Source: a virus (lineage: Duplodnaviria > Heunggongvirae > Uroviricota > Caudoviricetes). From it: a stretch of 24,933 bases of DNA. The stretch's first letter is position 1, and each line of letters opens with the position of its first letter. Shown piece by piece: positions 15,001 to 18,000 of this stretch. Location: IMG/VR virus record IMGVR_UViG_2859810971_000004. One strand, written 5' to 3'. Position numbers: made by a program.

Positions 15001-18000
15001 CTTTAGAGTAACGTTGGGTTTTTCTGCTCATTATTAGCTCCTTCTGATGCCATTCTATTTCAGGAAGGAGTGTCCGTTAAACTCAGGCTACCTCAGGTGA
15101 TCGGGGAGAGAGTTTCAACAGAGATTTGAGTGGTCATAACGATAACTCCGTACATTTGGAAATTATCGCCACCGACGACGCCAATCGAACTGGTGGCGAA
15201 CTGTGCAGGGTTGGCGTAACCGGGTACGGAAACCGGCGAGCCTTTCGGCTCCCCCACACAGCCCGCCATAAATCGCGAATGTGACTGTGCAAACGATATG
15301 AAAAAAGACGCGGGCGCGTCTCATATCGCTCCGTAAACATCCGGGACGCCAATCCCGACGCCAGATTTTGCTGGCGCGTGAGGAATATAGCCCGGATAAC
15401 AGATTGAGTCAACAAACGGTTTTTAGATCCCCGGAAGAGAATGCATCACGCATCGGTAGATAGAGCATATATTCAGCAAGATTTAGCCATACATCTACCC
15501 GACTGCAGCACGTCCGGAAACACCACTCAGGGTGTGCGTCATTCAGCAATTCAGCCATTTTACGCTTAGTCATCCCCCGCCCTTCATACCGTTGCCGGAG
15601 GACACTAATCAATCCAGGATGCTCTGCCAGCACCTCACTTATGACTCTATCAATACATAACGCCTCTGCATCAGTACAATGCGCCAGCCAGGTCTTTTGC
15701 TTGCCATTGATCATCTCTCGCAAAAACGCTTCCAGCTCAGGTTTCTCTATTCCCGCTTTTTTCATCCTGCGCAGGGCTTCATTGACGGCTGTTTTCGTCA
15801 ATTTTTTGGATGCCAGCAACTGGTTAAACATATTTCCCGTCTTACCGCCGCCAATATACGACCAGCGCCCCCACATGCGCAGTTTTCCCTGAATCCAGAC
15901 ACTTTCCAGCGTGGTGAGACGAAGGTGTTCCCCGCTTTTGCCTGTATTTGTTGGGTAAATCATAAATAACCTTCCTTTCTCCAGATTTCTTGTGTGCGAA
16001 AAACACCTTCTGCATGCATCAGGCGTAATTCTTCTTTGGTGTAATCGCTGGTTTTTACCCGCCCGTCGATTAAATCGTGGCATGAGCTACAGGCAATCGC
16101 TGCCTGCATATCGTGTGGTTTTGTCGCTGTTCCGCACGTCCCCGCCAGCCTGTAATGCGCCAGCACAGAAGTTTCGGGATTGTGATTGCAGTAGCCAGGA
16201 ATTCTGACGGTGCACATCTGCCCCGCGCCGCTTTACGTAAATCCACCATTACGCAAACTCCAGTAACTGCGCGGCCACATTTTCGACTTCCTCCGGAGAG
16301 GAAAATTTACGGAACAGGATCCAGTTCCACAGCACATTCAGTACAGATTTATAAACCTGCTGAAACTCGGTTTCGTCCATGTTCGCAAATGCGATAGATT
16401 TTGCCCTGCGCCCACGACTACCATCAGGATAAATATGCTCGGTGTAAAATCCGGCCTGAATGGTTACCCACTCGCGGAAAGCGTCAAACGACTTTAGCAA
16501 TGCCGTATCCCGGGTTCTGCATGTCGCAACTGTATTAAGGTATTGCTCTGCGGCATCACTCAGGGCTGGAGTGTGTTCCCGACCTACTGATTCGCACAGG
16601 TAATCAACGAAGCCTGATACCAGTTTTCGTTCGCGAGGCGTGATCGCCCCACCGACCGGAGTCCAGTAATCAAATCCCAGTTGCAGGAGTTTGAAAAAAC
16701 GCTTGTGGAATGCGTAGTTACGCACACGCTTAAAGTCTGCGTGTATCCACTCACCTATTTTGATTTGATGCAAAAAATCGCAACTCTCCGGCGTCGCCGG
16801 GAGAAGTAATCCGGAAGAGGTTTGTTTGACCAGTTGTATATGCGCCATCGTAGTTCTCCGCTGGCGCAGTAGAATGGGTGTTCAGCCCGTTATGTAGTAT
16901 ACCAGAATTAATGCCAATACTAACAGGGTAATGCTGCCAACTTACTGATTTAGTGTATGATGGTGATTTTAAGGTGCTTGCGTGGCTTCCATTTCCATCA
17001 GATGTCCTTCCTGCTCCGCTACTGAAGGCGTGGTGCGTAACGGCAAAAGCACTGCCGGACATCAGCGCTATCTCTGCTCTCATTGCCGTAAAACATGGCA
17101 ACTACAGTTCACTTACACCGCCTCTCAGCCCGGTACGCACCAGAAAATCATTGATATGGCCATGAATGGCGTCGGATGTCGCGCCAGTGCACGCATTATG
17201 GGCGTTGGCCTCAACACGGTTTTACGTCACTTAAAAAACTCAGGCCGCAGTCGGTAACCTCGCGCATACAACCGGGCAGTGATGTGATTGTCTGCGCTGA
17301 AATGGACGAACATTGGGGCTACGTCGGTGCTAAATCACGTCAGCGCTGGCTGTTTTACGCGTATGACAGGATACGGAGGACGGTTGTGGCGCACGTCTTC
17401 GGTGAACGCACTCTGGCCACACTGGAGCGTCTTCTGAGCCTGCTGTCGGCCTTTGAGGTCGTGGTATGGATGACGGATGGCTGGCCGCTGTATGAATCAC
17501 GCCTGAAGGGAAAGCTGCACGTTATCAGCAAGCGTTACACTCAGCGCATTGAGCGACATAATCTGAATCTGAGACAACATCTGGCAAGGCTGGGACGGAA
17601 GTCACTGTCGTTCTCAAAATCGGTGGAGCTGCATGACAAGGTCATCGGGCATTATCTGAACATAAAACACTATCAGTAAGTTGGAGTCATTACCTACTAA
17701 CAGGATGCTCTGACTCGCAATTCATCCAGCAGTTTATCATTTCCCATAATGTCACTTACCCTCATCGGTAAAAAAATTGCCTTTCGACCATTACGATACA
17801 TTATTGATTTTGGGGTTTCAGGGAAGTAATCCATTTCGACTATAACTGACAGGTCATCACGACGTATGACTGCGTATTTGCTACTAAATAGTTTCTTTAT
17901 TTTTTCCACGATGCCTCCAGGTTTATAAGTACAAACGGTTATATCCACATAGAGACAAAAATATTAATCTGATAAATATTTATTTCACGCCGTATATTTG

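Follow-up and report, generated by a model that had tools for sequence, protein, structure and literature searches.

Does a near-consensus promoter, followed closely by an intrinsic terminator and standing directly behind a Q-like antiterminator gene, mark the late switch on which Q acts? The question is raised by IMG/VR virus record IMGVR_UViG_2859810971_000004, of which a stretch of 24,933 nucleotides, here called the window, was analyzed. A first-pass annotation had described promoter and terminator as just such a switch, preserved with nothing left to regulate, the late genes having been replaced by IS600. Both elements were found where it had placed them. The promoter, which we call PisrK, has its −35 hexamer TTGACT at 15412..15407 and its −10 hexamer TATATT at 15389..15384 and matches 10/12 consensus positions; the Q stop codon TGA (15411..15409) sits within the −35 hexamer. 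The terminator stem (15322..15305, GAGACGC-GCCC-GCGTCTT, then a T run) lies ≈ 55 nt past the expected start site, at the near end of the 55 to 70 nt given by that annotation.

Scanning for consensus promoters gave three promoter-like sites in 3 kb where 3.5 were expected, which is not above chance. The reality of promoter and terminator therefore rests on Rfam models, on cross-phage conservation and on fusion data from Gifsy-1. PisrK is conserved in pPE4, in the Stx2a phage EH0505 and in Gifsy-1; the spacer of 17 nt becomes 18 nt in pPE4 and is apparently one base longer in the Stx2a phage and Gifsy-1 too. The Gifsy-1 homologue yielded 280 Miller units from a lacZ fusion, compared with 3 without the promoter (PMC4825925). 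A chance coincidence of promoter and terminator was ruled out by the Rfam scores and the cross-phage conservation.

The transcribed region proved to be an isrK gene. The isrK model (RF01394) gave 75.6 bits against a gathering score of 50 (E 1.8e-16), in an alignment that spans model positions 1-77 of 77. The model c4-a1b1 (RF03163) matched at 15390..15338 on the minus strand with 52.2 bits (gathering score, 46.7). Placed between IsrK and the ATG at 15137 was a C4 RNA (RF01695; 77.6 bits, gathering score 45). The fold of IsrK on its own was unremarkable (z = −1.7). The features of the locus are collected in the table.

Table. Features of the locus and of related elements in the window
Feature	Position	Strand	Basis or remark
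Q-like antiterminator gene, 184 aa, DUF1133	15409..15963	minus	Intact ORF; Pfam, PHROG, hhalign
PisrK, σ70 promoter (TTGACT, 17 nt, TATATT)	15384..15412	minus	Consensus scan, cross-phage conservation
IsrK sRNA, two 5′ hairpins and terminator hairpin	15301..15377	minus	Rfam RF01394, predicted fold
Decoy site b1 in IsrK, TTGGCGT	15352..15346	minus	Complementarity analysis
Decoy site a1 in IsrK, TACGGA	15335..15330	minus	Complementarity analysis
IsrK intrinsic terminator (7-bp GC-rich stem, 4-nt loop, T run)	15299..15322	minus	Terminator scan; 3′ hairpin of isrK model alignment
C4-type antisense RNA, within read-through transcript	15189..15273	minus	Rfam RF01695
C4 exposed element a′, TCCGTAC	15230..15224	minus	Complementarity analysis
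C4 exposed element b′, ACGCCAA	15217..15211	minus	Complementarity analysis
Leader with C4 target sites	15146..15184	minus	Complementarity analysis
Target site b2, TTGGCGT	15184..15178	minus	Complementarity analysis
Target site a2, GTACGGA, overlapping Shine-Dalgarno GGAG (15149..15146)	15153..15147	minus	Complementarity analysis
Antirepressor gene stump (ORF6N family in relatives)	15093..15137	minus	ATG 15137, 14 codons (MTTQISVETLSPIT)
IS600 copy, orfA and orfB oriented as PisrK	13833..15095	minus	No 3-bp target duplication
Second IsrK/C4 cassette, no Q nearby	11704..11960		Differs at the complementary sites

Short stretches of C4 are complementary both to IsrK and to the leader of the next gene. 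ACGCCAA of C4 can pair with TTGGCGT, which is present in IsrK and in the leader, and TCCGTAC can pair with TACGGA in IsrK and with GTACGGA across the Shine-Dalgarno sequence. The 10-mer GATTGGCGTC has exactly two occurrences in the window, one in the leader and one in IsrK, where 0.07 would be expected. The leader signature of this a/b specificity reads GATTGGCGTC...GTACGGAG. At the equivalent sites the second cassette of the window has other sequences (TTTCCAC/GTGGAAA and CTCGAGTGA/TCACTCGAG) and keeps the complementarity; the pPE4 cassette is a third specificity variant (GTGCTAA/TTAGCAC) in which complementarity is also kept. Since both cassettes differ at the same positions with pairing preserved, the three complementary sites co-vary. 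In whole-molecule duplex energy, neither IsrK–C4 nor C4–leader did better than shuffled sequences, and the argument for pairing therefore rests on the short sites and their co-variation. From these we infer that the a/b pairing scheme works in the window copy.

The gene behind the leader is an antirepressor gene of which just 14 codons are left before IS600, which makes the window cassette a truncated member of its kind. The reading frame of the stump closes at a TGA contributed by the beginning of IS600. Where the gene is intact, as in pPE4 (gp31) and Gifsy-1 (STM2616, AnrP), its product matches Pfam ORF6N, and homologues are 187-193 aa long. The IS600 boundary at 15095 lies ≈ 200 bp past the T run of the terminator, in good agreement with the ≈ 210 bp of the first-pass annotation. 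On its far side, 11 bp separate IS600 from IS2 (12492..13821), which is followed by a convergent Rha-family remnant. In other Shigella chromosomes IS600 is found 9 bp further in, flanked by a CAG duplication and with the remaining antirepressor gene kept; the exact antirepressor/IS600 junction of the window had 0 matches in species-representative genomes. No lysis genes, head genes or tRNAs were found in the window, and farther away it contains just a DUF4376 tail-fibre-assembly-like remnant and an ipaH gene. The earlier statement that lysis and morphogenesis genes are gone beyond the switch thus holds for that direction of the window, but IS600 interrupts the antirepressor gene, at codon 14, rather than the lysis genes.

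The protein encoded upstream of the cassette was assigned by profile comparison. It matched Pfam DUF1133 with E 2.7e-108 and PF06530 with 27.6 bits (cut-off 26), and PHROG 753 annotates it as 'Q-like'. By hhalign it aligned with phage 21 Q at a probability of 94.1% (E 1.3e-7, 134 columns, Q21 residues 6-152). The reciprocal comparison of Q21 with DUF1133 gave 22 bits, just below the cut-off of 23.1, and a phmmer search of PDB sequences returned a weak N-terminal match to Q21 (E 0.013) and nothing else. A comparison with 933W Q was uninformative (hhalign probability 6.8%), NCBIfam had no match for the Q-like protein, YbcO or DUF1367, and the AlphaFold2 model, built from just 27 close homologues, reached pLDDT 52 and pTM 0.37, a quality too low for a comparison of folds. 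One paper that mentions DUF1133 made the Q assignment by HHpred only (PMC8136144); no experimental papers on a DUF1133 Q were found in the literature. Judged by these alignments, the 184-aa protein is credibly a distant homologue of phage 21 Q and a Q-type antiterminator, as the first-pass annotation had supposed. An exact-sequence look-up returned Shigella names, and the identical 184-aa sequence is widespread in that genus. An IS1 copy lies ≈ 1 kb upstream of the gene, inside the early region.

To see how Q and the cassette are distributed relative to one another, we compared 80 IMG/VR loci whose Q proteins are 87-96% identical to that of the window. The cassette was present at 30/80 of these loci and absent from 50/80. 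A conserved terminator-ended element that accompanies Q in relatives, which we named segB, was found at 79/80; the one exception comes from a contig too short to reach the expected position. The distance from Q to the start of segB is 12 bp at loci lacking the cassette and ≈ 850-1050 bp at loci carrying it. Relatives such as 666R9 have segB, and so does a Shigella strain. In intact relatives the antirepressor is the next gene, and another terminator-bearing element comes after it. The 184-aa Q allele was perfectly tied to the cassette (30/30 versus 0/50).

The cassette also accompanies other Q genes. In Gifsy-1, a Q of the PF06323 (Q82) type, which has no similarity to the window Q, is followed by a promoter and early transcribed region almost identical to those of the window, and in EH0505, the one Stx2a phage examined, the cassette is located 2.8 kb upstream of a 933W-type Q. 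Within the Q82 family, 35/80 loci carry it. At Q82 loci without the cassette, isrJ lies 46 nt after Q, with TTGCAT-17-TATATT ahead of it and a terminator at its end; at those with the cassette, isrJ is located after anrP. When adjacent to Q, the cassette always begins exactly at the Q stop codon, and this is true of two Q families.

A consensus scan found no σ70 promoter in segB: the match in 666R9 falls inside the Q coding sequence and that in pPE4 is PisrK. The best candidate, TTGCAT-17-TTCAAT, has a −10 hexamer whose second base is not A, and two registers are possible. Because the same scan misses TTGCAT-17-TATATT before isrJ, its silence on segB is weak evidence. segB of the relatives has CGCATAAACTGC where phage 21 has CGCATAAGCTGC at its start site and pause element. 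The comparison suggests that segB is probably the own target of the DUF1133 Q. No segB is present in the window; it was deleted together with the late genes.

These distributions bear on the view that equates PisrK with the late promoter pR′ and the hairpin at 15322..15305 with tR′, where Q would load onto RNA polymerase at the promoter and cause read-through, in an intact switch that has nothing left to regulate. With a promoter at the Q stop codon and a terminator ≈ 55 nt into the transcript, the geometry is that annotated for phage 21 pR′. Since the cassette starts at the Q stop codon and its association with the 184-aa allele is perfect, a functional tie between Q and PisrK may exist. The early transcript even contains, at about +8 to +13, a −10-like CAAAAT that is a candidate σ-dependent pause site; however, a CAAAAT loop is conserved in the consensus of the c4-a1b1 RNA family as a whole. 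This promoter and early transcript recur beside an unrelated Q, far from Q in EH0505 and, at 11704, without any Q, while among close Q relatives most lack the cassette and nearly all have segB. A promoter-proximal recognition sequence specific to one Q family was therefore not borne out for 15412..15299. Nor was direct late-gene control by this region as a need of phage production: the next gene in intact relatives encodes an antirepressor rather than a lysis protein, and Gifsy-1 deleted for the isrK promoter still yields phage once AnrP is supplied from a plasmid, so that the deletion is compatible with AnrP-induced phage production (PMC4825925). We consider a late switch at this position very improbable, and the claim that Q acts on this promoter and terminator was not supported.

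A different function would remain if IsrK and C4 had been retained to target in trans, in other prophages or incoming phages, those antirepressor leaders that share their specificity, in cross-immunity or cross-induction at the RNA level, and/or if read-through from PisrK fed expression of the IS600 transposase. PisrK, IsrK, C4 and the target sites are indeed all intact. The b specificity TTGGCGT is common to the Gifsy-1 and Stx2a-phage cassettes, so that targets in trans exist in nature, and IsrK of Salmonella does act in trans (PMC4825925). There is, however, no second target of this specificity in the window, and the a and b sites of the other cassette at 11704..11960 are not cross-complementary to those of this one. 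Transcription from PisrK into IS600 is geometrically possible because orfA and orfB have the same orientation; yet IS600 has a promoter-like site of its own at 15080..15052. The locus occurs in very many Shigella assemblies, but recent common ancestry of the lineages accounts for this. On balance a retained function of either kind seems unlikely.

We consider it likely that 15412..15093 on the minus strand is the front end of an sRNA-controlled antirepressor cassette that has lost its output, with segB as the probable target of Q. In an intact cassette, PisrK, as a strong σ70 promoter, would initiate transcription at about 15377, and most transcripts would end at the intrinsic terminator to give the 77-nt IsrK RNA. 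Transcripts that read through would include the C4-type antisense RNA. Its two exposed elements would pair with the two leader sites, one of which lies over the Shine-Dalgarno sequence that serves the antirepressor gene, and translation would be blocked. IsrK, which bears copies of both sites, may serve as a decoy or as a structure-opener, leaving the ribosome-binding site free. Once made, the antirepressor would put the prophage repressor out of action, and Q would be turned on indirectly. Promoter activity, read-through, activation in trans and phage production independent of PisrK are taken over from the literature on homologues and are expected here by analogy. Because IS600 cuts the antirepressor gene after codon 14, the output of the window cassette is lost and at most the two small RNAs could still be made.

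The closest described counterpart is Gifsy-1 of Salmonella Typhimurium, where PisrK drives isrK-orf45-anrP and the short IsrK activates translation in trans (Hershko-Shalev et al. 2016, PMC4825925). The window cassette shares with it the promoter, the IsrK hairpins, the terminator, a C4-like RNA (STnc1160 in Gifsy-1) and the start of an ORF6N antirepressor gene. The two align over about 330 bp, beginning at the −35 hexamer and reaching the start of the antirepressor gene; the b site is identical, and both cassettes start at the Q stop codon. The two differ in the adjacent Q, which is DUF1133 (Q21-like) here and PF06323 (Q82 type) in Gifsy-1, and in the truncation by IS600. Furthermore, the reading frame equivalent to orf45 (opening at ATG 15269) is continuous, in frame, with the antirepressor start in the window, whereas it ends before that point in Gifsy-1. 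An IsrK–C4 immunity system in lambdoid prophages has already been named as such (PMC3632133). The promoter and terminator after Q are probably those of this known system, and the locus is probably an ordinary part of a decayed prophage.

The immI operon of P1/P7, reportedly described by Citron and Schuster in 1990, is said to consist of the c4 antisense RNA with a1/b1 and a2/b2 sites and icd-ant. The window cassette resembles it in the C4 fold, in having decoy sites upstream and target sites downstream, with the ribosome-binding site covered by one of the latter, in the control of an antirepressor, and in specificity variants that change three sites together. Unlike immI, it lies in a lambdoid prophage directly after Q, its a1/b1 segment takes the form of a separate sRNA with a terminator (IsrK) and its antirepressor belongs to the ORF6N family. 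RNase P processing and Rho-dependent polarity may apply to the window cassette, an assumption taken from P1. N15 and P4 (seqA/CI RNA) have systems related to that of P1/P7.

Phage 21 is the nearest reference for the Q gene; its pR′-QBE-SDPE-tR′ switch is reportedly that of Yin et al. in 2019 and is annotated in OL657228.1. In common with phage 21, the window has a distantly homologous Q whose gene stands at the end of a nin-type region, a promoter a few bases past the stop codon and a terminator close by. In contrast to phage 21, no direct-repeat binding element of the Q21 type is visible in the PisrK spacer, and the promoter next to Q belongs to a separate RNA cassette.

A wider reading of all these data can be put forward tentatively, as possible rather than probable. 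The IsrK–C4–antirepressor unit might be a mobile cassette that has repeatedly landed exactly between the Q stop codon and the late promoter proper to the Q family, in two unrelated Q families. DUF1133 might then represent an unstudied branch of Q21-like antiterminators with a segB core of ≈ 60 bp as its cognate site, IsrJ might be the 6S-like pR′-to-tR′ transcript of Q82-type prophages, and the orphan IsrK/C4 of Shigella may still be active in trans toward phages that share their specificity.

The Shigella locus itself is one more prophage part eroded by IS elements, in which the antirepressor, the candidate late promoter and the late genes have been lost. Its relatives indicate that, when Q in a lambdoid prophage is directly followed by a strong promoter and a terminator, these need not be a late switch: in ≈ 40% of the relatives sampled, they are part of an IsrK/C4 antirepressor cassette, with the family-specific late element located beyond it. 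The same error may be made wherever pR′/qut sites, Stx-type late transcription or prophage sRNAs are mapped from sequence alone.

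The 184-aa protein encoded by the Q-like ORF was a full-length member of Pfam DUF1133 (E 2.7e-108). It also matched PF06530, the phage antitermination protein Q family (27.6 bits versus a cut-off of 26), and its PHROG 753 annotation was Q-like. Among PDB sequences the sole match was to Q21, weak and confined to the N-terminus. When a profile built from 27 DUF1133 sequences was compared with phage 21 Q using hhalign, the probability was 94.1% (E 1.3e-7; 134 columns; Q21 residues 6-152). Reciprocally, Q21 itself belongs to PF06530 and comes almost to the DUF1133 threshold. The predicted structure of the protein was of too low quality for use. 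Upstream lie YbcO- and DUF1367/NinB-like genes, the usual position of Q. From these sequence comparisons we accept the protein as a distant Q21-family homologue and putative antiterminator, in agreement with the first-pass annotation, which had proposed a Q antiterminator here. One genomics paper assigned DUF1133 to Q by HHpred (PMC8136144), and we found no experimental literature on DUF1133 Q; the family is unstudied, yet annotated before. By exact-protein look-up, the Q protein occurs on at least 1000 contigs, named Shigella flexneri or under a Shigella multispecies entry. The YbcO-like ORF (15960-16217, minus strand) has 85 aa here versus 96 aa in related chromosomes, and gene calling omitted it from the identical chromosome CP026810.1, so its 5' end has probably been damaged.

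All the features described originally (ORF, promoter, hairpin with T run, IS600) were found on the minus strand, and the -35 hexamer of the promoter contains the Q stop codon. The promoter scan yielded 3 promoter-like sites versus 3.5 expected. Simple scans by themselves were thus not above chance, and the reality of the features rests on Rfam and comparative evidence. Rfam identified isrK, c4-a1b1 and C4 antisense RNA, all above the curated thresholds. The supposed terminator is the final hairpin of IsrK; the promoter is that of isrK (PisrK). C4 is followed by a leader and then by a reading frame (ATG 15137) that opens MTTQISVETLSPIT and ends at the TGA of the IS600 terminus. In intact relatives the product of this gene is a 187-193-aa antirepressor of the ORF6N family (gp31 of phage pPE4; STM2616, or AnrP, of the Salmonella prophage Gifsy-1). 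IsrK, C4 and P1 immI-like antirepressor control are all curated, published families, of which the window element is a truncated representative, and this copy itself is nothing new. The counterpart of orf45 (15093-15269, minus strand) starts at an ATG at 15269 inside C4 and runs without a stop, in frame, into the antirepressor ATG, whereas orf45 of Gifsy-1 has been described as an upstream ORF of 45 codons in its own right.

Coordinates of features in the window and in comparison loci
Feature	Position	Strand	Evidence or remark
Q-like ORF, 184 aa	15963..15409	-	ORF call
Promoter-like site TTGACT-17-TATATT	15412..15384	-	promoter scan
GC-rich hairpin + T run	15322..15299	-	terminator scan
c4-a1b1 (RF03163)	15390..15338	-	Rfam, 52.2 bits
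isrK (RF01394)	15377..15301	-	Rfam, 75.6 bits
C4 antisense RNA (RF01695)	15273..15189	-	Rfam, 77.6 bits
IS600	13833..15095		end at 15095, about 200 bp beyond terminator T run
IS600 junctions compared	window 13822-13833, 15093-15100; L169 (locus keeping segB, probably Shigella) 3840-3900, 5100-5200		
Second cassette, isrK	11704..11780	+	Rfam, 59.6 bits
Second cassette, C4	11805..11892	+	Rfam, 76.7 bits
CssrB sRNA	2631-2813		145.7 bits
ipaH (IpaH-type NEL E3 ligase gene, 571 aa)	2942-4657		
hok/sok module	18185-18509		
segB examples	L004 4832-4950; L001 (pPE4) about 6700-6825; L005-L084		
isrJ layout loci	L088-L167; L003 3873-3947; L128 3674-3780		

The heptamer TTGGCGT, present in the loop of the second IsrK hairpin (15352..15346) and again in the leader (15184..15178), has its complement in the C4 element ACGCCAA (15217..15211). 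The C4 loop TCCGTAC (15230..15224) is complementary to IsrK TACGGA (15335..15330) and to leader GTACGGA (15153..15147); this leader site overlaps the Shine-Dalgarno sequence GGAG, located 8 nt ahead of the ATG. The window contains exactly two copies of the 10-mer GATTGGCGTC, one in IsrK and one in the leader, versus 0.07 expected. At the equivalent positions, the second window cassette has wholly different sequences, GTGGAAA/TTTCCAC and TCACTCGAG/CTCGAGTGA over GAGG, and pPE4 has a third version, TTAGCAC/GTGCTAA. Because each cassette carries its own complementary version, the three sites co-vary. C4 would block the ribosome-binding site of the antirepressor gene, and the upstream site copy in IsrK would act as a decoy, the same logic as in P1 immI (C4 over the ribosome-binding site, upstream decoy sites). 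This predicted mechanism fits the Gifsy-1 experiments, in which isrK-orf45-anrP is transcribed from PisrK, translation of the long transcript is silent until short IsrK activates it in trans, and IsrK G28/G31 mutations are compensated by C162/C159 changes in the C4 region (PMC4825925). The IsrK-C4 immunity system in lambdoid prophages was already referred to in PMC3632133.

The original reading was of an intact Q switch, with PisrK as the late promoter modified by Q. In two Q families the Q stop codon is indeed the exact point at which the cassette begins, and the 184-aa Q allele is perfectly linked with it; the simplest explanation of this linkage is a recombination junction within the 3' end of Q. 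However, very different contexts share a conserved block of ~330 bp that runs from the -35 hexamer to the start of the antirepressor gene. It follows DUF1133 Q in the window and pPE4, and also Gifsy-1 AntQ, a PF06323 (Q82 family) protein with no similarity to the window Q. In Stx2a phage EH0505 it is flanked by a methyltransferase gene and Roi-like genes, with a 933W-type Q 2.8 kb downstream, and the second window copy has no adjoining Q. Among 80 IMG/VR loci with DUF1133 Q proteins 87-96% identical to the window Q, the cassette begins at the Q stop codon in 30 and is missing from 50, whereas a conserved terminator-ending element, which we call segB, is present in 79. Q82-type loci show the same layout, with a separate isrJ-containing element besides the cassette. 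Moreover, AnrP-induced phage production in Gifsy-1 does not require PisrK (PMC4825925). Given these four lines of evidence, we regard PisrK as a most improbable target of Q; the evidence supports the Q-type gene but not an intact switch.

The IS600 beside the cassette lacks a 3-bp target duplication, and on its far side 11 bp separate it from IS2 (12492..13821). Its orfB has 269 aa instead of 272. The CP026810.1 chromosome is 100% identical to the window over the 3.6 kb compared. Other chromosomes from the exact-protein look-up (probably Shigella) have their IS600 9 bp deeper in the antirepressor gene, flanked by a clean CAG duplication, and retain both the remainder of that gene and a segB variant beyond it. 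Compared with these, the window version is a further, secondary deletion or arose by an independent event. IS1 (16927-17694) lies in the early region ~1 kb upstream of Q, 79 bp ahead of the DUF1367 gene and inside the operon that would normally transcribe Q. It probably separates Q from its promoter; the Gifsy-1 antQ start site is 1.6 kb upstream of antQ (PMC4825925). The second cassette (11704-12492, plus strand), of different pairing-site specificity, precedes a Rha-family gene (ATG 11950) cut by IS2. That gene has an apparent frameshift near 12250 ahead of the IS2 end at 12492, and the two cassettes face each other across IS2 and IS600. CssrB, ipaH, hok/sok and the IS set (five IS600 copies, IS1, IS2, IS66) mark the window as a typical Shigella ipaH-bearing prophage remnant. 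PP818812.1, named Actinobacillus phage vB_Apl-pPE4, shares 93% DNA identity over Q, cassette and flanks. One would not expect a phage of a Pasteurellaceae host to be so similar to a Shigella/E. coli lambdoid region, which points to host misassignment or contamination.

The single DUF1133 locus without segB is on a contig that breaks off short of where segB would be expected. The distance from Q to segB is 12 bp where there is no cassette; where there is one, segB starts after the antirepressor gene. It has a near-invariant core of ~60 bp, CTTG..TTTTT...CATAAACTGCTTCAATTCCGGTA.GCTTCGCAAAGCTGTA.CGCGAGGCGAA, that goes with DUF1133 Q genes. Downstream of the core come at least four interchangeable intrinsic terminators and, beyond these, variable cargo (tRNA genes, a 189-aa gene, lysis genes). 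This is the arrangement one would expect for a Q-specific promoter-proximal site and then tR'. segB also contains CGCATAAACTGC, 1 mismatch from the phage 21 pR' start-site/pause element CGCATAAGCTGC. We propose segB, which is absent from the window, as a candidate late promoter and Q-utilisation site for DUF1133 Q. In the Q82 family, the cassette lies at the Q stop codon in 35 of 80 loci, and in 32 of these 35 an isrJ element follows anrP. Examples examined among the 45 others have, 46 nt after Q, isrJ (RF01393) with TTGCAT-17-TATATT in front and a terminator at its end. By its position, promoter and terminator, IsrJ looks like the short pR'-to-tR' transcript (a lambda 6S RNA analogue) of Q82-type phages; we found no paper describing this Salmonella sRNA as such. 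Judged from sequence, isrJ would occupy the pR' position in Q82-type prophages, and in two Q families the cassette appears to lie between Q and a family-specific late element. Phage specialists may find these comparative by-products (cassette placement, isrJ and segB) modestly interesting.
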